NCBI GenBank assembly: GCA_041753875.1 | Contig: CM085492.1 | Coordinates: 12,319,563 to 12,383,562 of the forward strand | From: Acanthopagrus schlegelii | Lineage: Eukaryota | DNA length: 64,000 nt | Direction: 5' to 3' | Part shown: one piece after another, positions 7,287 to 24,614 of the stretch | Layout of the letters: every line of letters starts with the position of its first letter | Numbering within the stretch: position 1 is the first letter of the stretch | Notes under the pieces: model-generated | The model's database searches: none | Seen by the model: only the letters and a program-made list of their open reading frames with translations | Told to the model about the DNA's origin: nothing | Position numbers and translations under genes: made by a program

Positions 7287-7313
7287 CCTAAACCACCTCC
7301 AAAACCTGCAGAG
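7287..7313 (+). CDS. Exon 2: PKPPPKPAE.
   Basis: Acceptor ttcacag, donor gtactg, phase 0, 27 nt. Confidence 0.55.
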
Positions 7314-9054: not shown

Positions 9055-9135
9055 GTTAAAGAGCACTTGAAACAAAGGGAGACAAAAGTGAAACTGGATG
9101 AAACTCCCATGGTTCCACCCAGACCAACAGACCAG
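9055..9135 (+). CDS. Exon 5: VKEHLKQRETKVKLDETPMVPPRPTDQ. It repeats the VPPRPTD motif of exon 3.
   Basis: Acceptor tgtatcag, donor gtacag, 81 nt. Confidence 0.65.
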
Positions 9136-9358
9136 GTACAGTACCCTCAAATACTCTTAATATCTACTAAAACACATCCATGCACTGAACTATCTATCTA
9201 TCTTAAATAGGAATCAGGAAGAATCTGTAGTTATGCGTTAGAACAGTTTACAGTAAAGAATTGAATGAAGCTACACAAGGTTTCATTTTTCTGTTCCTCT
9301 TCAAAATATCTGTTTTTGTTCCCTCCTGGGCTTTTACTGTGTGTGTGTATGTGTGCAG

Positions 9359-9418
9359 GAAATGAGGGCTACAACCAGGTACAGCCAGCGCAGGAGTGTA
9401 CAGGCTGAGGACACACAG
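9359..9418 (+). CDS. Exon 6: EMRATTRYSQRRSVQAEDTQ.
   Basis: Acceptor gtgtgcag, donor gtatac, 60 nt. Confidence 0.55.
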
Positions 9419-9420
9419 GT

Positions 9421-9438
9421 ATACACACACACACACAC
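9421..9438. repeat. (CA)n microsatellite (intronic).
   Basis: acacacacacacacacaa. Confidence 0.9.
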
Positions 9439-9514
9439 AATTATATCTTGTTCCTCCTCATTTGTTTTTGTTTTTAAATAAAAACACGCTAAGGTCCTTC
9501 CTCTTCCTTATCAG

Positions 9515-9574
9515 AGCTCCAGAACAAATGACCAGTCAGACGTTCCCAAAGATGAAGCAGACTTCATCAAACAG
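9515..9574 (+). CDS. Exon 7: SSRTNDQSDVPKDEADFIKQ.
   Basis: Acceptor ccttatcag, donor gtattc, 60 nt. Confidence 0.55.
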
Positions 9575-10549
9575 GTATTCCTTTTGGAGTCAGTAACTTT
9601 CAGCTCGGACTTAATACAGAATCGAAAAATAATCGTGTCATTGTGTCAACAACAGCAGTCACTTCCAGGCAGACAGCTGGCAGTTGATTTGCATTGTGGA
9701 GATGTGTGATTCCAGCAAACCTGTTTTCTTCCATTTGGCATTTTCAGTCGTAACCGAAGTGTTTAAAGACATATTAAAACACAATGGTCCGACCTGTCTG
9801 ATATTTCTGTTCGGCTGTTTTGCTAGTGTCTTTCATATCTACTCAGTGACATCTAACCTAACTGTTAGTTTGGGCTAACTCAACCTTTAGTTTTCTTCAG
9901 TCCAGCAGGTAAATAAGTTAAGCATTATTGTTAATGAGATAAGAAAAGCATCAAACATGCATTTTCAGATTAATTAAATGTTCACACTTCGTTGATCAGA
10001 GAATGAGACTCAAAAATCGGCTATAATGAGAACAGCTTCAAAACTTAACCTGCTTTACTTGTCCACATTAATGCTTGTTTCTCACTCCTTTCCGTTTTCT
10101 CTCCCAGCAGTGTTATCTGCTTCTTTCAACAGCTGTAATTTTTATAAATGCACCAAAAAACACACCTTGTGTTTAGGATTTTTTTCACCTGCAATTCTGT
10201 TGAAGGTAAACTCTGTGTGGAGGAAGCTTGTTGTTAATAATGTAGCCAATAAACCAACGTACACCATCATGATCAGTGCATTTACAGGAGGGATGTGTTG
10301 CCGGAGAACGTCTGCCTCACTCTGTCTTCAGAGCATGTGTGACAGTAGACAGGATGGAGGAGCGAGGGCGGACTGTCCGGAGTTTTTTCATCGGATAGGG
10401 GGAAAAAAAGAATTAAAGGCTAAAATGGGTTACCAAATATACTTGGGCAGTCATTAGTATACCCTGGTGTTCAGCCAAAACTAAGTATATGTGTGGGATA
10501 CACTGTTTATACACTGTCTTCATCTTTATGTCCATGTGTTTTGTTGCAG

Positions 10550-10615
10550 AGTGATCAGACGGTCCTGACTGGGATGTTTCAGCGGAGCCGAAAAGAAAAA
10601 ACACCTACGTTTACT
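10550..10615 (+). CDS. Exon 8: SDQTVLTGMFQRSRKEKTPTFT, a degenerate B-type repeat exon.
   Basis: Acceptor ttgttgcag, donor gtaagc, 66 nt. Confidence 0.6.
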
Positions 10616-11109
10616 GTAAGCGATGCACCTGCAGCTCTTCTCTGCACAAAACATTTAATTATTATGCGTTTTATTCATTTTAGATTTTGGAGTAGAGCTG
10701 TGTTCTGGCCTTGACGCCACCTTTTCTAATAGTGGCACACTTTTTGAGTTAATTAAACTGCCGCAGCTTGACAGGCTCCTGGTGGCAAACGGGTGTGTGT
10801 GGGTGTGTACACAAATGAACAATAGGCATGTAGTTAGACAAACCTTAGGAGTGTATCAGATCCCGCTAGAATGAGTCAGTGTTGTAACCCATCAGATCAA
10901 AGAGAATGTTATAATTATCAAATAGAGGAAAAAAGAGGCACTAAGTATAAACATGTCATGGGAAAAATGTAATAAACACAAAACTATAGAATGTTTTATA
11001 GACTCTCTGTGCAGCACCGTAGTTACTGTGTTTAAAGCTGAATTTTTTTCATAATGCAGGTGTTGAATCAGCAGTTATTGAGTTTATCTGATTTTTTTTT
11101 CTTCATCAG

Positions 11110-11187
11110 AGTTATGTGTTCGATGACTCTGACAAAAAGGAAAAAACTGATGATGTTCCTGCCAAACAGGCTTCTGGCAGCAAACCG
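11110..11187 (+). CDS. Exon 9: SYVFDDSDKKEKTDDVPAKQASGSKP.
   Basis: Acceptor cttcatcag, donor gtatgt, 78 nt. Confidence 0.6.
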
Positions 11188-11416
11188 GTATGTGTGCTTG
11201 TCTTTGTATCTTTCAGTGAACAGACTTTGTCTTTCAACCAGTTTTGTGAGGACATTTTGGCTGGTTCTCCGGACTTCAAAGGACTGTTGGAAAGTTTTAT
11301 GGTTATGGTCAGATCAAGTTTAGATCTGGGTTAGACATTTAGTTCTGACAGTTACAGATAGGGTAAGGCAATATGCATTATGTCATTGAATGTCTTCACT
11401 AGTGATGCAGATCTGT

Positions 11417-11417
11417 G

Positions 11418-11446
<29 letters not shown>
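11417..11446. repeat. (GT)n microsatellite (intronic).
   Basis: gtgtgtgtgtgtgtgtgtgtgtgtgtgt. Confidence 0.9.
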
Positions 11447-11449
<3 letters not shown>

Positions 11450-11494
11450 CACTGTTGATCAGCTGGTTTGTGACATGTGACTATGATCTAACAG

Positions 11495-11545
11495 GGCGGT
11501 CTGAAGGGAGTAATGAAAGGGTTGCAATTCAAGTCGTCACCAAAG
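11495..11545 (+). CDS. Exon 10: GGLKGVMKGLQFKSSPK, a degenerate B-type exon.
   Basis: Acceptor tctaacag, donor gtatga, 51 nt. Confidence 0.6.
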
Positions 11546-12165
11546 GTATGAAACACCGTCTGCTTTGGTGTTTTCTGCTGGTGGTGGCTGCAGTATTTTA
11601 CAGAGTTTTTGTTTTTTTTAACATGGAAATACTTGTTCTTGGGTGGTGGTGGTGTTGATGGTAGCGGTTTTCATTTTAACTTGTTCGTGAACTGAGACAT
11701 CCCGGGTTCACAACCAGCCAGGGGCCTTTGTTGTCTGCCCTTGACTTTCTAATAAAGGCCCCAAAACAGAAAATGTTTATGCCACTGTTGATGTTTCAAA
11801 CCTACAGTTTCACAACTTGACAAAGTGACATGTGTGACTTATGAGTCAAGTATCCTTGCCTCAGTTTAATTTGTTGTTCAACTACTTATTGTTCCTTTTT
11901 AAGAATTTAAGTTTGTGAAAATTCTTATTTATCAAAGTTATTTAAACCTTAAAGGACTTTTGACACATTTTATGTTCCACTTGAAATAGAACCTATTGTA
12001 TTCATGAAGCAGCAGTAAAGGAATGATGATAAGTTGACTGGAAGCAATCAGATGATCTTAATGAAATTTTAAGCATCTATTTGATTGATGTCCTTTCTTG
12101 TCTGGTTGTTTTGATGGAAAAAGTACAGGATGATCATATTGTGCTGAAAATAATTGTTCTCAAAG

Positions 12166-12270
12166 GCCAGCAGAGAGCCGAGTCCAGACCCGAGCGCAGA
12201 GGAAGCAGCCTCCGAAAAGGAACAATCCGTAGAAAAAAACAAGCAGGAGAAGAATGTGAAACCCAAAGAG
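12166..12270 (+). CDS. Exon 11: ASREPSPDPSAEEAASEKEQSVEKNKQEKNVKPKE.
   Basis: Acceptor ctcaaag, donor gtaaga, 105 nt. Confidence 0.6.
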
Positions 12271-12587
12271 GTAAGAGATTAACAACCGTGTCTGACTCCC
12301 TTCTCTCATGTTAACACGCTAGTTCTGCTTTTTCAAAACAAATTAGAAGTGACAGGGGAACAACAAAGTGGATATGTATTCTTTTGAAAATGAGATTATT
12401 TTAAAAGTTCACTTCCTTTTAATGTGCAAACGACACTAGAGAAGCCACATAATAAGATTAATTCTAAATTAACATAAATTTTAACAGTGCTCAATTGCGC
12501 AACAGTTCAGTTTCTGTGAGGTAAACATAAAGGCATCTTGTCATTAGATGAGTAGACATCAGATTTTTTTCTCAATCTGTGTTTCAG

Positions 12588-12659
12588 GACATAGGAGATC
12601 TGATTGCTGGAATGTTCCGGAAATCTCCCAGAGAGAAATCACCGTCTCCAGCAGTGACG
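12588..12659 (+). CDS. Exon 12: DIGDLIAGMFRKSPREKSPSPAVT, a B-type repeat exon.
   Basis: Acceptor gtgtttcag, donor gtaaca, 72 nt. Confidence 0.65.
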
Positions 12660-12747
12660 GTAACATCGACTCTTCTGCTCCTTTTCTGAACGTTAACTTT
12701 CACTGTCATCGTCTTGTTGCCTTACGTGTTGTTTTGCTGTTTGCCAG

Positions 12748-12816
12748 GTCAGCAAAGCTGACTGCGATCCGGAAGATAATGAAGAAGCAGATAAGAAGAG
12801 TTCCGAACAATCCCAA
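12748..12816 (+). CDS. Exon 13: VSKADCDPEDNEEADKKSSEQSQ.
   Basis: Acceptor tttgccag, donor gtaggt, 69 nt. Confidence 0.55.
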
Positions 12817-13639
12817 GTAGGTCTCGTTTTATTGGCCTTATGTTTCTGAAGCGTTCGTGATATCACTCGCCCATCTCATGGACCCGATACAGTTGGATTT
12901 TAGCAAAAGTACTGACTGTATTGGCTGCCACTGATGACTTGACAGCTCTCCAAAAATTAAGCAAAATTGCTTCCTGGTGGCTGGCTGCAGTGAGTGGGGC
13001 ATGAACCAAACTAAATACTCAAAGTACATGTCAAATAACATTTGTCCAAACATAACTTCTGTCATTTTGAGTAGGTGGTTCTGATAAGTGAATGACTTAT
13101 TTGAGACATAAAAATGGCATATGATATCACGTGGCAGCAGAGCCCCGCTTGCCACTTAGGCCAAAGATGTACTTGCTTTTAACCACACATCCGGGTATGC
13201 ACGAGTCCTGCGAGATGTGGAGTGTAGGTCCAGTATGGGGACATGTCAGCAGCAGGGACAACAACAGAACAACAAGCAAACGTATGCCCTCTAGTTTTAT
13301 CCTCCAGTAAAAAACATTGTATGTAGGCACTTATGTGACCATCTTTGTTAACAATTCAGCCAGTTGTCTATGTGAACATATGGTTCTAAACAAGTAAATG
13401 TCCGGCCTTAGTCAGGTGGGTGTATATGAGGTATCTCAATACCAAGCTCCACTGTCCTATCACTGCTGCGTAGACTTTTGTTTTCCATCTGTCTTGCTAG
13501 TGAAGCTTAATTTCACCAGACAGACACATAGAAGACTTATGATTTAATCAGAATTTCAGGTGTTTTGTTGTATTTTTATGTATGTTATCACAAATGCAAA
13601 AAGAAAAAAAAGCATAAATAATTACTGTATTGTTCATAG

Positions 13640-13708
13640 GGAAGAGGAGGCTTGTTCTCTGGCATCCTTAAGAAACACAATAAAACAGCAGATGAGGCAC
13701 CTGCGCAG
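13640..13708 (+). CDS. Exon 14: GRGGLFSGILKKHNKTADEAPAQ (B-type).
   Basis: Acceptor tgttcatag, donor gtgagt, 69 nt. Confidence 0.7.
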
Positions 13709-13825
13709 GTGAGTAAGAATAGCCTCCTCTTTCTTAGAATACAAAATGAACATCTGTTGATACTTTTCATTATTTTTTTGTGTGTTTTTTCATTTTTTAT
13801 TGTTTTTTTTACATTTGTGTTTCAG

Positions 13826-13894
13826 GACAGTCTGAGTGTCAACAGTGAGCTGTCTGCCAGCAGCGACAGTCTGTCTGAAAGCAACAGCAACAAG
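13826..13894 (+). CDS. Exon 15: DSLSVNSELSASSDSLSESNSNK (A-type).
   Basis: Acceptor gtgtttcag, donor gtgaga, 69 nt. Confidence 0.75.
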
Positions 13895-14026
13895 GTGAGA
13901 AGTTCTGTGTCACAGTGCAGATAAAGTTATCTTTAAGTACAGTGTACACACAGATTAGCAGTTCGTCATGCAGAAAAGCCCCTCACTGACCTTCCATAAC
14001 TGAGCCTTTGCTTTTGTCTGTTTCAG

Positions 14027-14098
14027 GAAAAAGGAGGAATATTCAGCGGGATGTTCAAGAAGTCTCCGAAACCAGCAGAAGCTGCTCAGACTGATGAG
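14027..14098 (+). CDS. Exon 16: EKGGIFSGMFKKSPKPAEAAQTDE (B-type, canonical).
   Basis: Acceptor ctgtttcag, donor gtgatg, 72 nt. Confidence 0.8.
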
Positions 14099-14201
14099 GT
14101 GATGCAGCTGAAAACTATTTAAATAAAGACCGAATGGTCGACTCGTTAGTAAGATCCAGTGGCCTGATGCTCACATTGAACTGGTTCATTTTATCTTCTA
14201 G

Positions 14202-14264
14202 GACCAACAGGCTCTACAAGAGAATTTGTCAGGCAGTAATGATAATCTGTCTGAAAACACAAAG
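14202..14264 (+). CDS. Exon 17: DQQALQENLSGSNDNLSENTK (A-type).
   Basis: Acceptor tcttctag, donor gtgagc, 63 nt. Confidence 0.75.
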
Positions 14265-14375
14265 GTGAGCTCAGTACTTGGCTGTGAAGTGACTGGATTA
14301 TACCTGCAGCATCATCATCGTTATGATTATGTAACAGTCACTGATGGTGTGAATCAATCTCTCTGGTGTCACCAG

Positions 14376-14447
14376 GAGAAAGGAGGAATTTTCAGCGGGA
14401 TTCTCAGAAAGTCTCCCAAGCTTCCAGGAGAGGGAACGCCGGGGCAG
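14376..14447 (+). CDS. Exon 18: EKGGIFSGILRKSPKLPGEGTPGQ (B-type).
   Basis: Acceptor gtcaccag, donor gtagaa, 72 nt. Confidence 0.8.
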
Positions 14448-14992
14448 GTAGAAAATGTTTTTGCACACATTTTAGACACTCTAGTTATCACTGAAAATGT
14501 TTCAGACTGCCTTGTTTTTCACCCCATCAGAAAAAATGAATGCAAGTGTAAATAAAAGGAGGTTCAGGGTTTTGAACATATTAATGATGCAATGCAAACG
14601 CCTAATAAAACATGGAGTGTAGTTAAAATGTTTGGGTTAAGTGGGTTTCTTATGTACAACAGTCATGTTCCTACTTAAAGGATTCAACAAATTTGGGGAT
14701 CCTTTGTGGTTTTGGTGTTGTTGTCTGCTTGTTTGTGAGTTGTATTAAAGGACAACAAGAAAGGACATATTGATGGTGCAAAGTCTTACTGTCCATCTGT
14801 TGCAGTCCTCTGATGCTCTTTGTAATTGCCAGACTCTTCATAATTTTAAATACAGAATTGACATGAAAGAGAAAATGTAAGACAGTAAATAAAAAGATCA
14901 GAGAGCAAGAAAATTAAAACTGAACACTTGGTGGATTCTTGTTCATTGATCAAACAACTGAGGCGTCGTATTGTTCTTTGTTTTTGTTTCAG

Positions 14993-15055
14993 GATAAAGA
15001 GTCGCTGCAAACGGACCCATCAGACAGTAATGACACTAATGAGAACGGCACCAAA
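14993..15055 (+). CDS. Exon 19: DKESLQTDPSDSNDTNENGTK (divergent A-type).
   Basis: Acceptor tttgtttcag, donor gtaagg, 63 nt. Confidence 0.6.
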
Positions 15056-15649
15056 GTAAGGAGCCCAGATTGACTGGGTTGATGACAGCGGCTGAATCTT
15101 ATATTTACTTTCAACCCTCCCCTATATTTAGAAAAAACTGCAACACCCTCATTGTTAAAGACGCTTTGTTACATACATTCAAAATTATACTTAAACTGAC
15201 AACTTTTATACATATTGTTATGAAGTAAATGTTGATTGCACAATGTAATGGCTGTAGAAGATGATATTTTGTCTGCTACCTGGCACAAAATCTCATGAGA
15301 AAATGAAGAACGACTGATGATCCAGTCGTCCTTTTTAAGGTCAGTTTGATTATTCAGTTCACTCAGTCATGGAAACAAAGAGTTTGGAGTTCGCATTTGA
15401 CAAAGAAAAGGAAAGCAAACTGAACTAGTTTGACGTGAGGTGGAAAATGAAGCCCTGATAAAGAAACAGGATGTGCTCTGTGCCCTTCCATGAGCAAAAA
15501 GAAAAAAATACATGAACCTTCCCCTTTTCTGTCAAACTCACCACAAGGTGATTTTTCCAAATTATCCAAACTTTAATTATAAGTATGTAACTTCACATAC
15601 TTCCTTTCAGTGTCCAGAAAATGAATTCCTATTTGTCTTTATGTTTCAG

Positions 15650-15727
15650 GAGAAAGGAGGAGGAAGTGTTTTCAGTGGGATGTTCAAGAAATCTCCCAAA
15701 CTGTCTGAGGCCCCCCGACTGAAGGAG
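15650..15727 (+). CDS. Exon 20: EKGGGSVFSGMFKKSPKLSEAPRLKE (B-type).
   Basis: Acceptor atgtttcag, donor gtaaaa, 78 nt. Confidence 0.8.
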
Positions 15728-16139
15728 GTAAAACTTTATATACTTAATGTCTGCGATAGTATATGTTGTGCAGTAAGATCATCATATGTTTTTTGCATCT
15801 TGGTCAACATTTCAGAAGAAAAAAGTCTATTTTCAGCATTGTGATGATGCATTTTGCAGCTAAGGCGAGAGGTTTTTTTAAATTTTTTATTTTTCACAAT
15901 CAGTAAAGGAATGATTGATCACTCAGTGTATGAAGGAACAAATCAGATTCAAAATCTCCTAAGCCGGAGATACATGATTGTCACTGGACAGGAGGGTTAT
16001 TACAGTCCACTGCTGCATTCGAAGCCTTGAATGTAAAGAGCTGCGGACTCCTGCTTTAACCTGTTTTGTGTCAGTAATTGGATCCCTGCAGTCAATATCC
16101 ATGTCCACACAGGTTGAGTAACATTTTTGTTGTGTTTAG

Positions 16140-16199
16140 GAAGCAGAGACGTTACACAGTGAGCTCTCTGCCAGCACTGACAGCCTGACGGAGAACAAG
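16140..16199 (+). CDS. Exon 21: EAETLHSELSASTDSLTENK (A-type).
   Basis: Acceptor tgtgtttag, donor gtgagt, 60 nt. Confidence 0.75.
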
Positions 16200-16395
16200 G
16201 TGAGTCTTCATGATGGAAGTGACAGTGACGGATCCTCCCGCGCACCCACAGAAACTCCATGAGTCACCGTGACTCACATGATCAGCAACACTAATGTGGG
16301 AAAATATCTGCAGCTCTGTCGCTGGATAATCTTCAATCTGGAATTCAAGAAAATAATTTGTCAGTTTCATTTAACATGTTTTCTGCTCGGTGTAG

Positions 16396-16452
16396 GAAAA
16401 AGGCGGTTTGTTCAGCGGACTCCTCAGAAAGACTCCAAAAACAGCCGTAGAG
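16396..16452 (+). CDS. Exon 22: EKGGLFSGLLRKTPKTAVE (B-type).
   Basis: Acceptor ggtgtag, donor gtacac, 57 nt. Confidence 0.8.
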
Positions 16453-16781
16453 GTACACTGACTCAAATCCAAGTTTCTTTGCTTTCAGGCAGACACAGAA
16501 TGGAAACACCATCTAATCCAACCACCTTGATGGTTTCAATGTCAATGTCATTCCTACAACCTCATTTGTTGCTTGTACTCAATTGAATCACCCATCCTTT
16601 ATGCTATGTTTAGAAATAACAAAATAAATGGAGCACAGCTAAGTATGTGTGGCAGTGTGCTCAAATGCTGTAATGTAGAAGTTGAATTGAAATTTTTACA
16701 CATTCTTCTACAGATTTATTTTTTGTAACTCTTTCCTGTGGAGCTACTTTCCGTTTCTGACAGACTGAATTCTTGTTTCAG

Positions 16782-16850
16782 GAGAATCTTTCGGCACGGA
16801 AAGAACTTTCAGCCAGCAACGACAGTCTGTCCGAGACCGCCAACACCAAG
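16782..16850 (+). CDS. Exon 23: ENLSARKELSASNDSLSETANTK (A-type).
   Basis: Acceptor cttgtttcag, donor gtcagt, 69 nt. Confidence 0.75.
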
Positions 16851-17266
16851 GTCAGTTTTTGGTATAAAAGCACACTTTGTCACTTCATTTGAAAGCTGAT
16901 ACATTAAGAAATTGAGCAGGACATCTTGTTCCAGTTTCCATAAACAAATCTGATAATAGTGTTTTTGTGCAGATTTCCTGAAATGTAACCCCAGGTTGAA
17001 CAATGTGAACAATGGGGAAAAATGAAGCACTGAGAACAAAAGAGAGGCTGACATTTTTTCTTGGGAATTTTTTTGTTGTTTAGAACAGCAGGACTTACGA
17101 CTAGAGCTGAAACGTTTAGTCAACTGGAAATTATTCTGCAACTACTTTGATTAGTTGGTGTCATTTAAATGTTTAATTGTTAAATAATTTTTAAATTTCA
17201 AATGAAAAGTCAAAAAAATGTCAGGTGATGTATTTATGTTCTGTAAGCACTTCAACTGTGTTTCAG

Positions 17267-17338
17267 GAGAAAGGAGGTGCGTTCAGTGGAATATTCAAGA
17301 AGTCATCAAGACTTGCAGACGGTCATCACACTGAAGAC
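17267..17338 (+). CDS. Exon 24: EKGGAFSGIFKKSSRLADGHHTED (B-type).
   Basis: Acceptor gtgtttcag, donor gtaaga, 72 nt. Confidence 0.8.
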
Positions 17339-18163
17339 GTAAGAAGTGGCTTCTCTGTTTTTCTGTCTCCATCCAGTCATCCCTTTAGAAGTCTTGAACT
17401 TTAACTCTTTAACTTGTTCACTTTTCAAGCTGCATATTGCCAAAATGTCATCAGAGTACACTGAGTACACAAGTGACTTGAAGGCTGCTTGTTTGAATCC
17501 CAGAAACAACATGAGTAACTTATTTTAAGTTAACATAAGGTTTCTTCCAGGACATGGTTTGGCCTAGGTAGCAAGCCATCCAGATCTGGAAATGATGTAA
17601 TTCTTATCACCTGCACTTTAAATGCTTTAAAGGAGGACTCTGTCCATCAGTCCAACAAAGTTACAGCAGCAACATTTAAAAGAAAAGGATCAAAAATTAA
17701 TGCACCAGAATCAGAGATGCTGTCTTCTTAACCCCACGTTTTCTTCTTCCTTGTCTAAATCAAATGCATACATTATCTAAAGTCTAACTTAAACACTGAC
17801 GGTTTGATCAGAGATCCAGATGTTTTATACTGGTAGCATCTAATGAAGCCACGAGCTGCTAAGCTTAAGAGAGAAAAACAAGAGCTTTTCAGACCTCAGT
17901 AGCCCACTTCTCTCTAACTCCACACTGCCAGATTTTTTAAATTTTAAAACTTGTAGTCAAGACTGACTTAAGTGTCACTTGCTGTGATACTCCCGCAACA
18001 CCTCTAAAGAAACATAAATGTGTAATCTGGGGAGTTTCCCTTGAATCTGACATGGTAGCGGTAAAAGAGCAGTAAAAGTGCTTGGTTCCCCCACACTGTT
18101 ACTGATGACATGTCAATTGTCTGTAGTGTGTCAAAAGCTCTGATTGATTTAATCTTTTCTCAG

Positions 18164-18229
18164 GAAAAGCAATCAGAAGATGATGAGCTCTCAGGAAGCA
18201 CTGAAGCGCTGTCCGAGAACAACACAAAG
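18164..18229 (+). CDS. Exon 25: EKQSEDDELSGSTEALSENNTK (A-type).
   Basis: Acceptor tttctcag, donor gtgaat, 66 nt. Confidence 0.75.
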
Positions 18230-18310
18230 GTGAATTCTTTTTACACATCATTTAGAAGCCCGTCCTGACTAACTGTAAGAGGGAGCCCTCACTGTCTGAA
18301 TATGTTTCAG

Positions 18311-18382
18311 GAAAAAGGAGGAATATTTGCTGGAATGTTCAAGAAAGCCCCCAAACCTGCAGAAGCTGCTCAGCCTGAGGAG
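18311..18382 (+). CDS. Exon 26: EKGGIFAGMFKKAPKPAEAAQPEE (B-type).
   Basis: Acceptor atgtttcag, donor gtaaaa, 72 nt. Confidence 0.8.
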
Positions 18383-18794
18383 GTAAAAGTCTAATTTACT
18401 TCATTATTAGCCTGTCTATTAATTGTTTAAATAAAATACAGCTCTCGATCTTCATATATTAGTTTTCTGAAAATGTAAGTTGTAAAGCATCATTGCCTGT
18501 TTGTTAGCAAGGTATCTGAGAACGTTATGATGTTTTGAAAAGAGATTTCCTAACTTTTCTTCACATCTTCTCCATGTTCACATGAACTACTTCACTGAAA
18601 ATCTGGCAAATGTGTCGCATCATTGACTATGATAATGCAAAAATATGCACGGATGTTGATTTCATATTTTCACTAAGAAATATACTGTGAACCGATAGGT
18701 GCCACTCAAATTACTGCCACCTTTTTTATCAATGTAACGACTGAAATAATGTATTCCCCACGCAACATGTTTATAACCTGATGACTTTTAACAG

Positions 18795-18854
18795 GACGAG
18801 TCTGCTGACAAAGAGCTCTCAGCCAGCAATGAGAATTTATCAGAGGGCAAACAG
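18795..18854 (+). CDS. Exon 27: DESADKELSASNENLSEGKQ (A-type).
   Basis: Acceptor tttaacag, donor gtcagt, 60 nt. Confidence 0.75.
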
Positions 18855-18943
18855 GTCAGTGAGTTAAGTCCAAGATGGGTAATGAGTTTGAGTCTCTCAG
18901 CCCATCATGAAGCCTTTTTTCTGTCTTTTGTCTGTTTCATCAG

Positions 18944-19018
18944 GAGAAAGGTGGAGGTTTGTTCAGAGGCCTCAACAAAAAGCCTCCCAAAGCGTCTGGA
19001 GAAAAAACAGAGTCACCG
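18944..19018 (+). CDS. Exon 28: EKGGGLFRGLNKKPPKASGEKTESP (B-type).
   Basis: Acceptor tttcatcag, donor gtgagt, 75 nt. Confidence 0.8.
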
Positions 19019-19108
19019 GTGAGTTTGTGTTTTCTGGAAGTGCCATTAGTCTCGTAACTTCAACAAAATTTTCAACTGTTTCATTAAACATCTGTTTCTC
19101 TGTTTCAG

Positions 19109-19174
19109 GATGCAGAGGCTCGGAAAGAGTTGTCTGGCAGCAACGACGACCTGTCTGAGAATAACACCACTAAG
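19109..19174 (+). CDS. Exon 29: DAEARKELSGSNDDLSENNTTK (A-type).
   Basis: Acceptor ctgtttcag, donor gtgagc, 66 nt. Confidence 0.75.
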
Positions 19175-19255
19175 GTGAGCAGCATAATGTGACAAAAAAC
19201 ATGCAGATGAAATGTCTTCAGAGGGAACGTTCACTGACACCAGATTATTTTTCAG

Positions 19256-19324
19256 GAGAAAAACATTTTCAGCAACATGTTCAAGAAGCAACAGAAACCA
19301 GCAGAGGGCGCTGCAGCAGAGAAG
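19256..19324 (+). CDS. Exon 30: EKNIFSNMFKKQQKPAEGAAAEK (B-type).
   Basis: Acceptor tttttcag, donor gtgcca, 69 nt. Confidence 0.75.
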
Positions 19325-19417
19325 GTGCCATGATGTGATATAATTGACTGAATACATTCGGTTTATTGAGAATGGATGTTAATATTGTAATGAACTGTTT
19401 TCTGGCTTTGAATTCAG

Positions 19418-19483
19418 GAGCTGGAGGTGAACAGTGAAAGTCAGATATCTGGTAGCTGTGAGAATCTGTCTGATGCCCCAAAG
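19418..19483 (+). CDS. Exon 31: ELEVNSESQISGSCENLSDAPK (A-type).
   Basis: Acceptor gaattcag, donor gtactt, 66 nt. Confidence 0.7.
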
Positions 19484-19602
19484 GTACTTTTCGTTCTTTA
19501 AAAAGACTCTTTTCTCTGTTTTTCTGTCTTGGAGTCTCTGTAGTTTTATTAACATGTTTCTGAATATTTTCATTTGAGAGAAATAACTCAAATCTGTTTT
19601 AG

Positions 19603-19668
19603 GAGAAAAAAGGAGGCCTGGCTGGCATCTTCAAAAGATCAGGCAGCATCGACAACCTGTTTGATGAG
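19603..19668 (+). CDS. Exon 32: EKKGGLAGIFKRSGSIDNLFDE (B-type).
   Basis: Acceptor ctgttttag, donor gtcagt, 66 nt. Confidence 0.75.
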
Positions 19669-19852
19669 GTCAGTGTGAACCTAGTGAGCACAGTATCACA
19701 GTAGCAGCCCTACTACAATTAAGGCACCCATGAGCAGATACTTTTACTTCTGATTATAGTTACCTATAGCATTTTCAATGCATTAAAAGTTATTTTTCAT
19801 AACTTTTCAACAACTTAACTTGCATGCTTTTTTCTTTTTTTTTACTCACCAG

Positions 19853-19924
19853 GAGAAAGGCGGGCTGTTCAGTGGACTCCGTAAGAAAACACCCAAAGCG
19901 TCTGGAGATGAGGCGGCTGTAGAG
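19853..19924 (+). CDS. Exon 33: EKGGLFSGLRKKTPKASGDEAAVE (B-type; a second consecutive B exon).
   Basis: Acceptor tactcaccag, donor gtgagt, 72 nt. Confidence 0.8.
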
Positions 19925-20008
19925 GTGAGTGTGTGTGACCTCGGACACTGTTAGGATCACTCAGCATCATTGTCCATGTTTGTATACTGTGAAATTCTCT
20001 TTTGTCAG

Positions 20009-20074
20009 GACAAAGATGATCAGATGGAGCTGACGGCGAGTAATGACAGTCTGTCAGAAACCAACAACACTAAG
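20009..20074 (+). CDS. Exon 34: DKDDQMELTASNDSLSETNNTK (A-type).
   Basis: Acceptor ttttgtcag, donor gtactg, 66 nt. Confidence 0.75.
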
Positions 20075-20296
20075 GTACTGTGTTGAGATTTTTTTTTTTT
20101 TTAAGCATAAAAGGAACTTCTGCACTATAAACTTTATTCAAATTCACTCTGACATGCGTAAGTTTTCTCATGTACATTTAAAAACACATTCTTTTAATGC
20201 TGTTTATTTTTTATTGTACTTTTTAGCTATGACACATTACAAATAAACCTGGTGTAGTCTTCAACGCCACTTACTGTCTGTCTTGTCTGTTTTCAG

Positions 20297-20365
20297 GAGA
20301 AAAGTATTTTTAGTGGCATGTTCAAGAAGACTCAGAAACCAACAGAGGGGGCTACAACGGATGAG
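20297..20365 (+). CDS. Exon 35: EKSIFSGMFKKTQKPTEGATTDE (B-type).
   Basis: Acceptor ctgttttcag, donor gtgcag, 69 nt. Confidence 0.75.
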
Positions 20366-20439
20366 GTGCAGTAAATGACCCTTTAATGTTCAAAATGTAT
20401 TTCTGTTCGTCTCTTTTTGATCTTTGATTTTCTCTGCAG

Positions 20440-20511
20440 GAGTTAAACTGGGATGAGGATAATACGTTGTATGGCAGTGGTGAAAATCTCTTAGAAACAA
20501 CCACATCAAAG
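20440..20511 (+). CDS. Exon 36: ELNWDEDNTLYGSGENLLETTTSK (divergent A-type).
   Basis: Acceptor ttctctgcag, donor gtaaaa, 72 nt. Confidence 0.65.
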
Positions 20512-20605
20512 GTAAAAATGTGGTCCAACAAACACAATCTCAGTCTGTTTTTATTCTGTTCTGCAGCTGAATATCAACTGTTAACAAGTGTTTCATACAT
20601 TTCAG

Positions 20606-20677
20606 GAGAAGAGTGGTGGACTGGCAGGGATCTTCAGAAAGTCTCCAAAACCAGCTCCTCGATCGATCGCTACAGAG
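20606..20677 (+). CDS. Exon 37: EKSGGLAGIFRKSPKPAPRSIATE (B-type).
   Basis: Acceptor catttcag, donor gtgacc, 72 nt. Confidence 0.75.
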
Positions 20678-20825
20678 GTGACCAAGGTTTTTTTTTTTGT
20701 GCGGTTGTATGTATGATTATTCATGATTGAGATTTCTGCGGAAGCGCTCGTTTAAATTTTTGTGCTAACATTGTTTAAAAATAACCTTCAGCAAGTTCAC
20801 ACAGAGGTTCCGTCGTTTTTTCCAG

Positions 20826-20888
20826 GATCCCCTCACTGCCTCTAAGGAACTATCCGCCAGCTGCGACAGCCTCGTAGAAACTGCAGAG
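20826..20888 (+). CDS. Exon 38: DPLTASKELSASCDSLVETAE (A-type).
   Basis: Acceptor ttttttccag, donor gtgaga, 63 nt. Confidence 0.7.
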
Positions 20889-21231
20889 GTGAGAGATACT
20901 CAGAATCTGTGGATGCACTTGGATGCAACTTGTTTTGTTTATTTTAACCCATTGAGACAGAGGATGCCCATTTAAAAAAAAAACATTATAAAACCTTAGG
21001 CATTGTTTGAAAACACCTCCTGAAACCTGAGGCATAACTGAAAGATGTGACAGAACTGTCAGTGTTCACTAAAACCTTTATTTCTCAGCTTCTGGAGAGG
21101 AAAGAACATGAAATAAAGAAACATTTGAATTACTGTGAGAGTTGTGTCCAACAACCATGCCAAAAAGTTTCAGTGATAGTAATTTCTGACAAAATTCTTG
21201 TTTTGTTCCGTCTATTAATTTTATTTTAAAG

Positions 21232-21294
21232 GATGACCTTCCTCGATTATCGGCCAGCACAGATAATCTTGTAGAAGCTTCAAGTGCCACGAAG
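21232..21294 (+). CDS. Exon 39: DDLPRLSASTDNLVEASSATK (A-type; a second consecutive A exon).
   Basis: Acceptor ttattttaaag, donor gtgagt, 63 nt. Confidence 0.7.
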
Positions 21295-21382
21295 GTGAGT
21301 TAATTATTCTGCTTGACTGTATTAGTTTATTTTCCCATTTAAAATACTTGAATTAATGCTCCTTGTTTTATTTTTTGAAAAG

Positions 21383-21442
21383 GAGAAAAAAGGAGGGTTC
21401 GCTGGAATCTTTAGAAGAACGCCTAAAACAATTGAACATCAG
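21383..21442 (+). CDS. Exon 40: EKKGGFAGIFRRTPKTIEHQ (last B-type).
   Basis: Acceptor tttgaaaag, donor gtatgt, 60 nt. Confidence 0.75.
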
Positions 21443-21754
21443 GTATGTATATCACTATTACAGATGTGTACAATCATTAGTAGTTAGCACAACTAATACT
21501 GGTCACAGTGATTATATTTGATCTAACCCAGAAAAAAAGTAGGTTTATGATGTAGATAAATTGCCAATCTGTGAATTTAAGATGTAAGATTGTCAGTGAG
21601 GCGAATGAAAATGCTCTAAATACATAAAACGCATTTAGGGATTTGATTTGAGCATTGAGAGCTGGTTAGTTGATCCCTATAGACTCCTGGATCATGTGTG
21701 TGTGCAGCTGCTAAACAATCCTCTCTGCTGCCCATTTTCTGTACCAATTTTCAG

Positions 21755-21826
21755 GAAAGTGCAGACATGGAGTCTCCACAAGGAGGCGGGCTGAAACGCA
21801 GGAGAACCATCAAGAAAAAAAGACGA
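21755..21826 (+). CDS. Exon 41: ESADMESPQGGGLKRRRTIKKKRR (strong basic cluster).
   Basis: Acceptor caattttcag, donor gtgagt, 72 nt. Confidence 0.65.
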
Positions 21827-21939
21827 GTGAGTTGTCGTTTATTCACTGTAACATCCAGAGACACGATTATTGCAAACTGTGTTTTTTTTTTTCTTCTCTT
21901 CTGGTTGTTAAATCCCTCTTCTCTTTTTTGTTTTCTCAG

Positions 21940-22002
21940 GTTACTTCATTCCGAGTCAAGAAAACGCTTCCCAAAGTACCCAAACTTAATCTGACATCTC
22001 AG
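21940..22002 (+). CDS. Exon 42: VTSFRVKKTLPKVPKLNLTSQ.
   Basis: Acceptor gttttctcag, donor gtatct, 63 nt. Confidence 0.6.
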
Positions 22003-22322
22003 GTATCTACTGATTCCTTCTAGTTATTCCTGAGTTACTCACTTTCTCACTGCTGCTGCATCACTGCAGAGAAACTTGGTCCTGATATCAAGTCCCATGT
22101 CACCTTTTTAAAAAAATATTTGATCGCTTGAAAGGCTTGGAAAAAAAAAAAAGCCTTGAATAAAGTTTACGAACAGGTTGTTTTATGTTGCTGCTTCTTA
22201 TTAAGGTGCATAAGTTATGAGGATCAGTTGAAAAGGTGATTAGAAATCATGCTGGGTCATTTTTACAGGCACCCACATTCTCCACAAATATCTCTTTTTT
22301 ATTTATATTTCCTTACTTTATT

Positions 22323-22418
22323 TACTGATTATTATTATTGTTGTTATTATTATTATTATTATTATTGTTGTTATTGTTATTGTTATTATTATTATTGTTG
22401 TTGTTGTTGTTGTTATAT
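22323..22418. repeat. Compound (ATT)n/(GTT)n microsatellite, ~95 bp, in the intron just upstream of exon 43.
   Basis: ttattattattgttgttattattattatt...gttgttgttgttgtt. Confidence 0.9.
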
Positions 22419-22460
22419 TTTGCTGAGTTAATGAGATTGAGATTATTTTTTAATCCACAG

Positions 22461-22523
22461 AGTTCAGATAAAATGACTATTATTGAGGAGGCTGTTGAGC
22501 TGCAGGAGCTGAACCCAGCACAG
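22461..22523 (+). CDS. Exon 43: SSDKMTIIEEAVELQELNPAQ.
   Basis: Acceptor taatccacag, donor gtaaac, 63 nt. Confidence 0.6.
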
Positions 22524-22545
22524 GTAAACACAATGATGTTATTAA

Positions 22546-22567
22546 GTGTGTGTGTGTGTGTGTGTGG
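22546..22567. repeat. (GT)n microsatellite.
   Basis: gtgtgtgtgtgtgtgtgtgtgg. Confidence 0.85.
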
Positions 22568-23039
22568 TAAATGTGATATTCTGTTCAGTTTCATACCTTT
22601 TAAAGCATAACTGACACAATGAAAATGTTGAATATGTTGTTTTGTTCACACATTGCATCCTAGCATGTTTTGCATGATATTCGAAACTTGTAACTTATGA
22701 TAATTTGCTCACTGAATGCTTGTAAGAGTCTGAGCCCACATTAAACAGTGAAATGATTAGTTTAAGGGGCAGTATGTAAGAACTGGCATATTTCTAATTA
22801 TATTATAGGTAACATGATACAATTCATGTCATGTAATTATCTTTTTCATCATCTCTAGACATCTGCAGCCCTTGAAGTGGCGACAGTTAGCATTTAGCAT
22901 GTAGCTAGTGATCACTGAACAGACTTACACCTGTGATGCCAACAGGAATACAGGAAACTGTGATGACAGTAGTTACACAAAATGACTCTTTAAAGTGAAT
23001 TTAATGTCATAATGTTGTGTTGTTGTGTTTGTTTTCTAG

Positions 23040-23114
23040 GAGAGCTCAGTGGAGGTTCAGCCTGTGGAGATGGCATCTTTCCCCACTGAAGAAAACCCAC
23101 TGGAAGCTGACGAG
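23040..23114 (+). CDS. Exon 44: ESSVEVQPVEMASFPTEENPLEADE.
   Basis: Acceptor gttttctag, donor gtgtgt, 75 nt. This is the last of 44 consecutive exons whose lengths are divisible by 3. Confidence 0.6.
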
Positions 23115-23292
23115 GTGTGTTTTTTGGGGGCACTTTCGACACTTGTAGTTTGGATTTGTAATGTCCGAACCAAGAGAAAGAATTATGTATTGTTGCATTT
23201 TAGTTGTGGCCTGTTTCGGTTTTAGACTTTGATATAAAAGAAGAACATCAATGTACTTTAGGGTTTTCTTTGACAAAGTTCTCTGTTTTCAG

Positions 23293-23332
23293 GAAAATGA
23301 TGAGTTGATGGAGTGGTGGAACACTGTCAAAG
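23293..23332 (+). CDS. Exon 45: ENDELMEWWNTVK plus one carried nucleotide (40 nt, ends in phase 1).
   Basis: Acceptor ctgttttcag, donor gtttgt. Frame is restored across exons 45-47 (40+52+415 = 507 nt). Confidence 0.55.
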
Positions 23333-23468
23333 GTTTGTGTGTTTGTCTTCAACTTTAATTGGTTCAGACTAGTTAGTTTATTCACACACACGCATACATA
23401 CACACTAACACATACAAGAAATCAGCACATTTATTACTAATTCTGTCACAACTTCTGCCGGTTGCCAG

Positions 23469-23520
23469 GTTGGGCAGAGTGGAACGAGACATCCAATTTC
23501 CAGGAGGATGATGAGGAAAT
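23469..23520 (+). CDS. Exon 46: (G)WAEWNETSNFQEDDEE(M), 52 nt.
   Basis: Acceptor gttgccag, donor gtaagc. Confidence 0.55.
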
Positions 23521-24047
23521 GTAAGCATAGTTTTATTTTCTTAAACACCCTTTCATTCTGATTTACACAGAAGATGTTATTTTAGCATTTTGAGGAATAT
23601 TTTTTATGCTTACTGTCTTAAAAAGCATTGAAATCAGTTTCTTCCAAAAACGGCTTTAGAAGGCATTTAAGTCTTACATCATATTCACAAAAAAGTTATT
23701 ATATTTTGATGTTTTCTCTTGCTTTCTGTAGGCAGTAATGTTGTGAAATATTATTGTATTTAAAATGCGGGAGGTTTAGAGACGTAACATCAGTACACTA
23801 AAATCAGGATTGTTGCAACAGGAGGCTGTTGCTGTAAATCCTTACAGTTGGAGTCAAATGTCATAATTTCGACTTGTGCAGATGCCCTCTTTTTATTTAG
23901 TTAGTTATGTAGTATTTGTGTTTGTGCTCAAATGATGAATGTAAATATTTTCAAGACCCCATGTTTTACTGTGTGCACATGTACAACCTACCAGCATCTA
24001 ACTTTAAACCTAACAGACACACCATCTCTTCACATCCTTCTCTGTAG

Positions 24048-24462
24048 GGCGATGGAGCAGGCAGCTGATCGTGTCTACATGGCCGCCCGTCTGTTCGTGC
24101 GTCTCTTCAACAATCGGGGGGCGTCCCTGCAGAGTCGCATCCTGGAGCTTGTGGCTCTGGCCGACGCTGCAGATGAGTTCCACAAGAAAACGGTGAAGGC
24201 TGCTGTGGGTGGAGGGGTGGCCAGCGTCGCTGGCAGCGTGGCGACAATCACGGGCCTCATTCTGGCACCTTTCACTTTCGGTGCGTCGATTATCGTCACG
24301 GCGGTGGGGATCAGCGTGGCGACAGCGGGCAGCATCACCTCAGCGACGGCCAACATCACCGATACGGTTCACTCCAGCATGGACCGTAAGAAGCTGGAGA
24401 AGATGATCCAGGGCTACCAGGAGGAGATCAAAGACATCAGGGAGTGTTTGGAGTTTGTGCAG
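24048..24462 (+). CDS. Exon 47: core ApoL domain, AMEQAADRVYMAARLFVRLFNNRGASLQSRILELVALADAADEFHKKTVKAAVGGGVASVAGSVATITGLILAPFTFGASIIVTAVGISVATAGSITSATANITDTVHSSMDRKKLEKMIQGYQEEIKDIRECLEFVQ.
   Basis: Acceptor tctctgtag, donor gtgagg. Matches the conserved APOL block (LAD...VHKG..IA.VVG.S...SG.L.L.GL.LAPFT.GGSL...) including the hydrophobic helix-hairpin. Confidence 0.85.
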
Positions 24463-24614
24463 GTGAGGAAATGTAGATAAAGTCAAATGAGTCACAATTC
24501 TCATTACGTTATCTTACATTATACGTCAAGTGCAGACTAGACCACAACTAGAGATAAGATACCATCTTGCGTCACAGTTCTTACAGCCCCTTTCTCTCTC
24601 TGTGCGTCCTGTAG

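Follow-up and report, generated by a model that had tools for sequence, protein, structure and literature searches.

Is a long series of short exons of two alternating sequence classes really the coding sequence of one gene and, if so, what might it contribute to the encoded protein? The question is raised by a 64,000-nucleotide (nt) stretch of the Acanthopagrus schlegelii genome (assembly GCA_041753875.1, contig CM085492.1, positions 12,319,563 to 12,383,562 of the forward strand; hereafter the window, whose own numbering is used throughout), in which an initial annotation, made from the sequence alone, had described an array of two exon classes, A and B, in a gene with an ApoL domain. We found that the repeat exons are genuine coding sequence of one gene and that they represent an undescribed, teleost-restricted repeat family in an uncharacterized ApoL gene, built on a known architectural principle. 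We are close to certain of the structural statements made below, that is, those on the gene structure, the selection acting on it and the lack of predicted structure.

Twenty-seven consecutive repeat exons were identified on the plus strand at 13640-21442, comprising 14 of class B, whose peptides begin with EKGGIFSGMFKKSPKP, and 13 of class A, whose peptides end in ELSASNDSLSENNTK. Every one of them is bounded by AG...GT, is 57-78 nt long and a multiple of three, and is entered in phase 0, in agreement with the initial annotation, which had proposed at least 27 exons of this size and phase in two classes. Its further proposal, that a protein unit of ~45 residues is split over two exons of different class, likewise held. 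Other parts of that description had to be revised. The exon order is B-A-B-A save for two breaks, a B-B pair (19603/19853) and an A-A pair (20826/21232), so that the alternation is not strict as had been claimed; both irregularities are also present in Scomber and Cottoperca. The introns within the array measure 74-825 nt, and the earlier figure of ~80-130 nt is correct for about half of them and wrong for the rest. The term 'micro-exon' does not suit the repeat exons either, as their length is above the limits that are usually set for that term (≤27-30 nt, at most ≤51 nt). The exons of ≤51 nt in this gene are exons 1, 2, 10 and 45 (48, 27, 51 and 40 nt), all of which are outside the array.

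The gene that contains the array has 48 exons and occupies ~19 kb of the plus strand (7084-26222), with 5043 nt of coding sequence for 1680 residues in a single open frame. Each of the 47 introns has AG/GT boundaries, and every exon from 2 to 44 is symmetric (phase 0-0). Upstream of the array, tblastn searches with the orthologs P0001, P0003 and P0006 added eleven phase-0 exons and reached an ATG at 7084, and downstream of it six short linker exons lead in frame to two large exons (24048-24462 and 24615-26222). The predicted protein could be aligned end to end with full-length orthologs, annotated independently, from Solea senegalensis (1627 residues, 68% identity) and Clinocottus analis (1660 residues, 70% identity), the differences from these being mostly insertions or deletions of whole A/B units.

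Several lines of evidence showed that these exons are coding and used. Exon-exon identity within the array was 55-58%, versus 30-36% for the flanking introns and 27% for random 66-mers from the window. Since only the coding parts are similar and there is no tandem repeat at the DNA level, the duplications are old and the coding parts alone have been kept. In comparison with Cottoperca gobio (L003), the ratios of nonsynonymous to synonymous substitution rates (dN/dS, Nei-Gojobori method) were 0.20 for the B exons (0.17 in the 14-codon core), 0.30 for the A exons, 0.10 for the ApoL domain and 0.29 for the charged tail, indicative of purifying selection, and nucleotide identity was 83% in exons versus 58-68% in orthologous short introns. 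Cottoperca has one phase-0 exon per A or B unit, as does the ortholog of the European eel (L001), a teleost from the base of the tree; in the eel, these exons are 48-75 nt long and many are separated by introns of ~80-130 nt. Whether the units are spliced into one mRNA was the test that the initial annotation had set for itself, and the answer came from Logan contig SRR10006208_539 (L002, 4743 nt), which joins A/B units to each other and to the ApoL domain in another teleost, probably a salmonid. This contig holds an uninterrupted 1118-codon open reading frame through A/B units, linker, ApoL domain and tail, and four further A/B exons are spliced together upstream of one retained intron in the repeat region; it must be derived from RNA because the genomic region spans >15 kb with dozens of introns. 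In addition, RefSeq isoforms of Micropterus salmoides differ by one exon each (a B exon in X3, an A exon in X4 and a linker exon in X5), and isoform X10 of the paralog in Gymnodraco lacks three AB units. These isoforms are automatic models, and their differences are the pattern expected of cassette exons.

The 14 B exons are located, in order, at 13640-13708 (GRGGLFSGILKKHNKTADEAPAQ), 14027-14098 (EKGGIFSGMFKKSPKPAEAAQTDE), 14376-14447 (EKGGIFSGILRKSPKLPGEGTPGQ), 15650-15727 (EKGGGSVFSGMFKKSPKLSEAPRLKE), 16396-16452 (EKGGLFSGLLRKTPKTAVE; at 57 nt the shortest repeat exon), 17267-17338 (EKGGAFSGIFKKSSRLADGHHTED), 18311-18382 (EKGGIFAGMFKKAPKPAEAAQPEE), 18944-19018 (EKGGGLFRGLNKKPPKASGEKTESP), 19256-19324 (EKNIFSNMFKKQQKPAEGAAAEK; 96% identical to the Scomber unit), 19603-19668 (EKKGGLAGIFKRSGSIDNLFDE), which is followed directly by another B exon at 19853-19918 (EKGGLFSGLRKKTPKASGDEAA), 20297-20365 (EKSIFSGMFKKTQKPTEGATTDE), 20606-20677 (EKSGGLAGIFRKSPKPAPRSIATE) and 21383-21442 (EKKGGFAGIFRRTPKTIEHQ), the last repeat exon. 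The 13 A exons are at 13826-13894 (DSLSVNSELSASSDSLSESNSNK), 14202-14264 (DQQALQENLSGSNDNLSENTK), 14993-15055 (DKESLQTDPSDSNDTNENGTK), 16140-16199 (EAETLHSELSASTDSLTENK), 16782-16850 (ENLSARKELSASNDSLSETANTK), 18164-18229 (EKQSEDDELSGSTEALSENNTK), 18795-18854 (DESADKELSASNENLSEGKQ), 19109-19174 (DAEARKELSGSNDDLSENNTTK), 19418-19483 (ELEVNSESQISGSCENLSDAPK), 20009-20074 (DKDDQMELTASNDSLSETNNTK), 20440-20511 (ELNWDEDNTLYGSGENLLETTTSK), 20826-20888 (DPLTASKELSASCDSLVETAE) and, as the second member of the A-A pair, 21232-21294 (DDLPRLSASTDNLVEASSATK). The A exon at 20440-20511 is degenerate, has counterparts in Micropterus and Scomber, and was missed by BLAST and recovered by inspection of the reading frame. 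Direct reading of 12400-16000 revealed short open segments, each with a polypyrimidine tract and AG before it and GTRAG after it, and tblastn with the two A and B peptides of the initial annotation returned a series of B- and A-type matches on the plus strand at 12.6-21.4 kb and nothing comparable elsewhere in the window. Tandem Repeats Finder gave no match within the array because the copies are too diverged in their nucleotides, the repeat being visible in translation only.

Some features of the repeat exons at the DNA level are also recorded here. The B exons are 63% purine, versus 48% for the intervening introns, and 13 of the 14 start with GAR-AAR (the first, at 13640, starts with GGA-AGA), most continuing with GGN glycine codons; GGA makes up 25 of 49 glycine codons in the B exons versus 2 of 21 in the ApoL exons. 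Most of the A exons have AAG|GT at their end, and splicing signals or enhancers, in addition to the protein itself, may therefore constrain the conserved 'K|EKGG' junction.

Outside the array, all exons are likewise on the plus strand. Exon 1 (7084-7131; MEACMMKPEVKKKPKP) holds the start codon, and the N-terminus (MEACMMKPEVKKKPKPPKPPPKP) is basic and proline-rich, with no signal peptide or hydrophobic signal sequence by inspection. Exon 2 (7287-7313) encodes PKPPPKPAE in phase 0, exon 4 (8364-8417) begins with ELNHTQYRTK, and exons 6 (9359-9418), 7 (9515-9574), 9 (11110-11187; acidic) and 11 (12166-12270; acidic and Ser-rich) were placed by ortholog tblastn. Exons 3 (7466-7534) and 5 (9055-9135) form a smaller N-terminal repeat, ending in two copies of a conserved proline motif (THPLVPPRPTDS and ETPMVPPRPTDQ) that is a candidate ligand of SH3 or WW domains. 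This motif is found in Scomber as well, and in several copies in the type-2 paralogs described below and in a catfish protein (ETPxVPPRPSEEEL). The degenerate B-like exons that had been reported to extend the array in the 5' direction were all present, as exons 8 (10550-10615; LTGMFQRSRKEKTPTFT), 10 (11495-11545; GGLKGVMKGLQFKSSPK) and 12 (12588-12659; DIGDLIAGMFRKSPREKSPSPAVT), and exon 13 (12748-12816; VSKADCDPEDNEEADKKSSEQSQ) is an acidic, degenerate A-like exon. After the array come linker exons at 21755-21826 (a basic cluster, ending in GGGLKRRRTIKKKRR), 21940-22002 (VTSFRVKKTLPKVPKLNLTSQ; it is the ortholog of this exon that is skipped in Micropterus isoform X5), 22461-22523 (SSDKMTIIEEAVELQELNPAQ) and 23040-23114 (ESSVEVQPVEMASFPTEENPLEADE), the last of the phase 0-0 exons. 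The intron between linker exons 42 and 43 holds a compound (ATT)n/(GTT)n microsatellite at 22328-22416. These are followed by an exon at 23293-23332 with a Trp motif, ENDELMEWWNTVK(G), that is invariant in both paralog types and coincides with the first predicted helix, and by an exon at 23469-23520 encoding (G)WAEWNETSNFQEDDEE(M). The first ApoL-domain exon (24048-24462) contains a Gly/Ala/Ser/Thr-rich hydrophobic stretch, GGGVASVAGSVATITGLILAPFTFGASIIVTAVGISVATAGSI, and the last exon (24615-26222; stop codon at 26220-26222) completes the ApoL domain (to ~24980) and goes on to encode an acidic coiled segment and a charged tail. This tail (25080-26219) is ~380 residues of Lys/Glu/Arg/Ser-rich low-complexity sequence that ends in a conserved LLEDGL[YN]I (here LLEDGLYI).

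The fusion of the repeat to an ApoL domain, which the initial annotation had proposed, was upheld by the one frame through 48 exons and by the match of the C-terminal part to the Pfam family ApoL (PF05461; E 1.4e-31), which scored 110.5 bits where 25.9 is the cut-off and covered positions 42-297 of the 298 in the profile. By its domain, then, the predicted protein is a member of the ApoL family, and its orthologs carry precomputed PF05461 assignments. Many positions of the hydrophobic stretch GGGVASVAGSVATITGLILAPFTFGASIIVTAVGISVATAGSI, a putative membrane-insertion segment, are invariant in a 38-sequence alignment, and its flanking helices were modeled by AlphaFold with predicted local distance difference test (pLDDT) values of 60-80. 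A PDB sequence search with the ApoL part (24048-24980) gave weak matches (E 0.0011) to Bacillus cereus NheC (6tao) and Vibrio cholerae MakE (6w08), which are components of ClyA-family alpha-pore-forming toxins. A Foldseek search of the PDB with the model of the Cottoperca ortholog gave nothing significant; its non-significant matches include the ClyA-family toxins YaxA, SmhB, AhlB, HblL1 and ClyA.

The gene corresponds to teleost models annotated as 'apold1a', 'si:rp71-1g18.13' or 'uncharacterized protein', and automatic models of it exist in >100 teleost species, with full-length gene models of 1450-1700 residues in many. A search with the repeat and linker returned 216 proteins, and those listed were all from teleosts, most of them 1000-1200 residues long and with PF05461. 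The names given to them say little or mislead (apold1a, si:rp71-1g18.13, apolipoprotein L1 isoform X, claspin-like, dao-5-like, titin homolog, starmaker-like), and the symbol apold1a links the gene to tetrapod APOLD1 by database names alone. Two types of paralog were distinguished. Type 1, to which the gene in the window belongs, starts with MEACMMKP, has WWNTVKGW before the ApoL domain and has a long K/E/R-rich tail ending in LLEDGLxI; type 2 starts with MERYDDLDLDLEC, has WWNTVESW, ends in DRIKKAIKKDYENREYL and mostly goes by the name 'apolipoprotein L1'. At its start (positions 3 to ~255, plus strand), the window cuts into the final exon of a type-2 ApoL paralog that lies upstream (GAKSEFAKKIREVSTQLHDGLVELNGIREELQ...DRIKKAIKKDYENREYL, followed by a stop codon), and thus types 1 and 2 are tandem neighbors; in the eel, there are three ApoL genes in a row. 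As both paralog types carry A/B repeats, the array predates the duplication that gave rise to them. Type-2 orthologs ('apolipoprotein L1 isoform X', 'Apolipoprotein L, 1') match zebrafish apol1, a kidney-disease model, by name only, and a search seeded with the catfish paralog to retrieve the zebrafish gene returned no cyprinid.

The claim that the repeat lies outside described families also stood. A Pfam scan of the 628-residue repeat region gave best E values of 0.05-0.85, all far below the cut-offs, no Pfam families were found in the repeat-only homologs P0006, P0019 and P0029, and we found no description of the repeat in the literature on apold1a, si:rp71-1g18.13 and ApoL in teleosts. To define its distribution, a profile of 46 A+B units from the window and diverse homologs was compared with 1.84 billion cluster representatives, which gave 101 hits at E ≤ 0.001. 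All large hits with a Pfam result contained ApoL, except for P0191, P0195, P0204, P0226, P0229 and P0239, which matched weakly or in the B half only, and the full-repeat hits that could be identified by name were all from teleosts, ranging from eels, tarpon, herrings, catfishes, characins and salmonids to percomorphs. As far as these searches and this database reach, the A/B repeat accompanies ApoL domains and is specific to teleosts. The consensus of the family reads D-x-L-S-x-x-S-E-L-S-A-S-N-D-S-L-S-D-x-x-T-K | E-K-G-G-x-F-S-G-M-F-K-K-x-P-K-P-x-E, of which positions S12, L16, K23 and K38 are ≥90% conserved from eels to percomorphs. The comparison of orthologous loci for repeat number that had been suggested gave ~6 units per protein in cichlids, 7 in Micropterus and 15-18 in Scomber, pufferfish and salmon. 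Most units of the window are closer to the collinear unit of Scomber or Cottoperca than to other units of the window, and this positional orthology within percomorphs indicates that the array evolves by occasional birth or loss of units and not by homogenization.

A number of candidate relatives were considered and set aside. The match of an Albula protein (P0075) to the Pfam family SPAR_C was dropped as a lead to a known family, as it covers 30 residues of one protein and is absent from the protein of the window, and the PF26369 label on Cottoperca P0019 was marked as faint (UPF0426) and could not be reproduced. The nematode, Sel1-repeat and Oreochromis GGLLSGLFK proteins were rejected as relatives because they match weakly or in the B half only. 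The Oreochromis niloticus protein (P0229/P0258) is 1442-2840 residues long, has no Pfam family and contains >12 motifs of the type GG[LF][LF]SG[LIF][FL]K set in spacers rich in Gln, Ser and Pro; its match was to the B half of the profile (E 3e-5), and this may be a case of a related short linear motif used in a different setting. P0191 (from the nematode Bursaphelenchus xylophilus), P0195, P0204 and P0226 have long arrays of ~95-residue repeats with GKIVGMFKRTPAHEDYP or ITGLFKKSPSHLDYP, whose likeness to the B core (GxFK[KR][ST]P) is probably convergent.

Together with the degenerate copies upstream, the array encodes an arm of ~600 residues that precedes the ApoL domain and its charged tail. 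Over their first 15 residues the B exons have a charge of +2 to +4 (~+3 for the core), and the A exons have one of -1 to -5 (mean -3.5), with 28% Ser/Thr. In the 605-residue region, 32% of the residues are charged and there are 22 Phe, nearly all of which fall in B cores, against a single Trp, a single Tyr and two Cys; the charge has a period of ~46 residues and is segregated to a degree above that of shuffled sequences (z about 3). In an AlphaFold2 model of the Cottoperca ortholog, derived from a 37-sequence alignment, the repeats had pLDDT values of 30-45 and no secondary structure, with the first helices appearing at the invariant DELMEWWNTVKGWxEWNE motif and continuing into the ApoL domain at pLDDT 60-80. 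On this model, the array appears to be disordered.

These results indicate that an ancestral pair of short phase-0 exons, A encoding an acidic Ser cluster and B a Gly-Gly/Phe/Lys-Lys/Ser-Pro-Lys patch, was tandemly duplicated before the teleost radiation, and that the copies have diverged since, each being individually retained by purifying selection. With one symmetric phase-0 exon per module, modules can be gained, lost or skipped without a break in the frame. We speculate that the array works as a multivalent, disordered arm whose charge alternates, located on the cytosolic face of an ApoL protein that inserts into membranes. Its B modules may act as multivalent short linear motifs of an extended basic/aromatic type, locally similar to the MARCKS effector domain, and the fourteen copies would make many weak contacts and so bind with avidity to a membrane surface, to a partner or to the acidic A blocks. 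The A modules are candidate phosphorylation clusters for acidophilic kinases (CK1/CK2-type), with a spacing that would fit hierarchical phosphorylation; the Ser in the DSLSE of the A block has Glu at +3. Phosphorylation would raise the negative charge of the A blocks and tune the contacts of B, and the array could in this manner set the valency, reach and self-association of the cytosol-facing ApoL membrane protein. The explanation as a whole, an array in a 48-exon ApoL gene that serves as a multivalent, phospho-tunable arm, is one that we favor with moderate confidence; the specific mechanism given for the array, as read from its sequence, is tentative. A more far-reaching version, in which the A/B array is a teleost-specific module that programs valency by splicing and phosphorylation and so regulates ApoL clustering on or off the membrane, we think rather unlikely. 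Were it true, the choice of modules would set how strongly pore-forming-type ApoL domains cluster on the membrane or stay off it.

It is important to note that several observations count against the arm as we have described it. The repeat region is net acidic (-24, with 86 K/R versus 110 D/E), which argues against simple electrostatic binding to acidic membranes, and each B core has a charge of only about +3. As the region is net acidic, self-interaction between A and B, leading to compaction or clustering, would be at least as likely as direct membrane binding. None of the tools used on the array matched a known short linear motif, and the mechanism draws on composition and on an apparent likeness of FSGMFKKSPK to basic/aromatic membrane-binding patches. 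The isoform evidence comes from automatic gene models of other species and not from transcripts of this genome.

The absence of structure in the AlphaFold prediction, the variation in unit number across species (6-18), the dispensability of single units in isoforms and the low-complexity composition would all be accommodated by a passive spacer or entropic bristle, for which only length, disorder and overall charge matter and the motifs have no binding function. However, what one would expect a pure spacer to preserve is composition, not motifs, and for this reason the conservation of motif positions from eels to percomorphs (ELSASNDSLS..TKEKGGxFSGMFKKxPKP) weighs against it, as do the collinear conservation of individual units between species and the dN/dS of 0.17 in the B cores. 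We judge a purely passive role to be improbable. Similarly low is the probability that we give to a sticker-and-spacer scaffold, in which Phe-bearing B stickers together with the oppositely charged A blocks would drive self-association or condensates that cluster ApoL on the membrane. In its favor are the ~46-residue alternation of charge blocks, more segregated than in shuffles, the 22 Phe per 605 residues that fall almost entirely in B cores, the multivalent units that are unstructured in the AlphaFold model, and the presence in another teleost protein (P0229/P0258) of >12 GGLLSGLFK-type motifs in Gln-rich spacers. Conversely, the array contains no strict FG, GLFG or FxFG motif and its Phe density is low (3.6%), and such a scaffold overlaps with the multivalent, phospho-tunable arm rather than excluding it.

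The remaining two alternatives are contradicted by the data. Near-identical tandem units with a dibasic site (KK/RK/RR) are a feature of peptide precursors, and the array could be imagined as a polyprotein from which cleavage at Lys-Lys releases many small peptide copies, but this is highly implausible given the lack of a signal peptide at the N-terminus (MEACMMKPEVKKKPKPPKPPPKP), the Ser-Pro that follows KK, the conserved core that spans the dibasic site and the in-frame fusion of the array to a large membrane domain in all species. Equally remote is the idea that the repeat and the ApoL exons are parts of two different genes, or that many of the repeat exons are unused pseudo-exons with a coincidental frame, as might be taken from the automatic models that split the locus (Cottoperca P0019 + P0010) and from several truncated models of 400-800 residues, for only 280 bp separate the two half-models of Cottoperca, which are collinear with the gene in the window, one frame runs through its 48 exons, full-length models of 1450-1700 residues exist in many species, an intron-free RNA-derived contig connects the repeats to the ApoL domain, and the dN/dS of the repeat exons is 0.2-0.3.

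The window as a whole is AT-rich vertebrate DNA with a guanine-plus-cytosine (GC) content of about 0.35-0.43, and its protein homologs are all from teleosts. It has one GC- and purine-rich block, at 24-26 kb, which is due to the Lys/Glu/Arg/Ser-rich tail of the ApoL protein. Downstream of the gene, a neighbor on the plus strand at ~33400-35750 encodes a DOMON-type domain (STCLFASLTASTPMAPNGTVLSVELRGESMGYIALGL). An automatic model from Chanos chanos (P0056) wrongly fuses this DOMON neighbor to the apold1a protein (PF05461 + PF03351), from which it follows that the ApoL-DOMON synteny is conserved. An open reading frame at 43088-43402 on the minus strand has an RNA-recognition motif of the hnRNP C/RALY type and is probably an exon of a neighboring minus-strand gene. 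At 43716-44618, a 450-bp unit is present in two tandem copies of 98% identity (Tandem Repeats Finder score 1743), which either arose by a recent local duplication or belong to a repeat element. Runs of (TG)n were found at 11414-11445 and 57528-57622, and a comparison with Rfam identified no RNA family anywhere in the window.

Among the ApoL proteins, APOL1 is known for trypanosome killing and kidney disease and APOLD1 for its part in endothelial biology, and fish are used as models. Teleost genomes hold two or three tandem ApoL genes in each of which an undescribed, conserved array accounts for over half of the protein. Much of the protein may be missing from fish ApoL gene models and from experiments that rely on short models. 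If the type-2 paralog is the counterpart of zebrafish apol1, that gene would have a large repeat-bearing N-terminus that is absent from its published 2.6-kb gene model. The repeat family could enter the domain databases and replace such names as 'titin homolog', 'claspin-like', 'starmaker-like' and 'dao-5-like', and the natural series of 6-18 modules, together with the skipping isoforms, could be used to test the effects of valency and charge patterning on a membrane-inserting domain.

Comparison with known systems places the gene and its array in context. With APOLD1 (VERGE) and APOL1-6 the protein shares a full-length ApoL domain in its C-terminal half and a Gly/Ala/Ser/Thr-rich hydrophobic stretch. 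Mammalian APOL and APOLD1 proteins are 250-450 residues long and to our knowledge have neither an N-terminal A/B array nor a 380-residue charged tail. The products of APOLD1 and zebrafish apol1 resemble the protein of the window in lacking a signal peptide, as has been noted for the latter (PMC4492502). The studies of zebrafish apol1 were based on a locus of 2.6 kb and say nothing of repeats (PMC4492502, PMC4854397), nor does a paper on the evolution of the APOL family mention repeat-bearing forms in fish (PMC8557400).

For the B modules, the nearest likeness that we noted is to the effector domain of MARCKS. As in that domain, the G-I-F-S-G-M-F-K-K-S-P-K of B has Phe flanked by Lys and Ser beside basic residues, with no predicted secondary structure. 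The MARCKS segment (FSFKKSFKLSGFSFKK) has a charge of ~+13 and is part of an N-myristoylated protein, whereas the B core is about +3 and is present in 14 copies interleaved with acidic blocks; the Pfam scan found no MARCKS family, and the N-terminus of the protein (MEAC) lacks the Gly2 needed for myristoylation. The FG nucleoporins (Nsp1-type) are similar in having recurrent Phe/Gly hydrophobic patches in a long disordered chain with charged, Ser/Thr-rich spacers, and one homolog of the array has been automatically named after a nuclear pore protein. The array is not a member of that group, however, given its F-S-G-[MIL]-F-K-K motif, its period of 45 residues and its context of an ApoL membrane protein; the B cores are F-S-G-[MIL]-[FL], F-A-G and L-A-G-I-F, and no FxFG or GLFG was found in the array.

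At the level of gene architecture, the closest parallels are with titin and tropoelastin. The PEVK region of titin, like nebulin, is encoded by tens of tandem short exons of the same phase, each specifying one disordered repeat of ~28 residues, and the choice of exons that are included adjusts the length. PEVK contains one repeat class, besides separate poly-E segments, and is an entropic spring in a sarcomeric filament, whereas the ApoL array has a two-exon unit of opposite charges; no sequence similarity between the two was found, and the automatic name 'titin homolog' reflects composition only. In tropoelastin (ELN), short hydrophobic and cross-linking domains alternate, each on one small exon, and the exon borders are all of the same phase, so that they behave as cassettes; splicing and differences between species change the number of domains, and the protein is largely disordered. 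Tropoelastin is a secreted protein in which lysyl oxidase cross-links Lys residues, its hydrophobic domains being of the VPG type and its cross-linking domains of the Lys-Ala/Lys-Pro type. The array has the same two alternating classes, one exon per domain and one phase, with its two irregularities, but its sequences are unrelated, it has no signal peptide and it is attached to a membrane-inserting domain, so the analogy is one of architecture only. While the array thus reveals no new principle of gene architecture, by analogy with tropoelastin and titin PEVK its alternating same-phase cassette exons, which encode a repeat predicted to be disordered, represent a known architecture.

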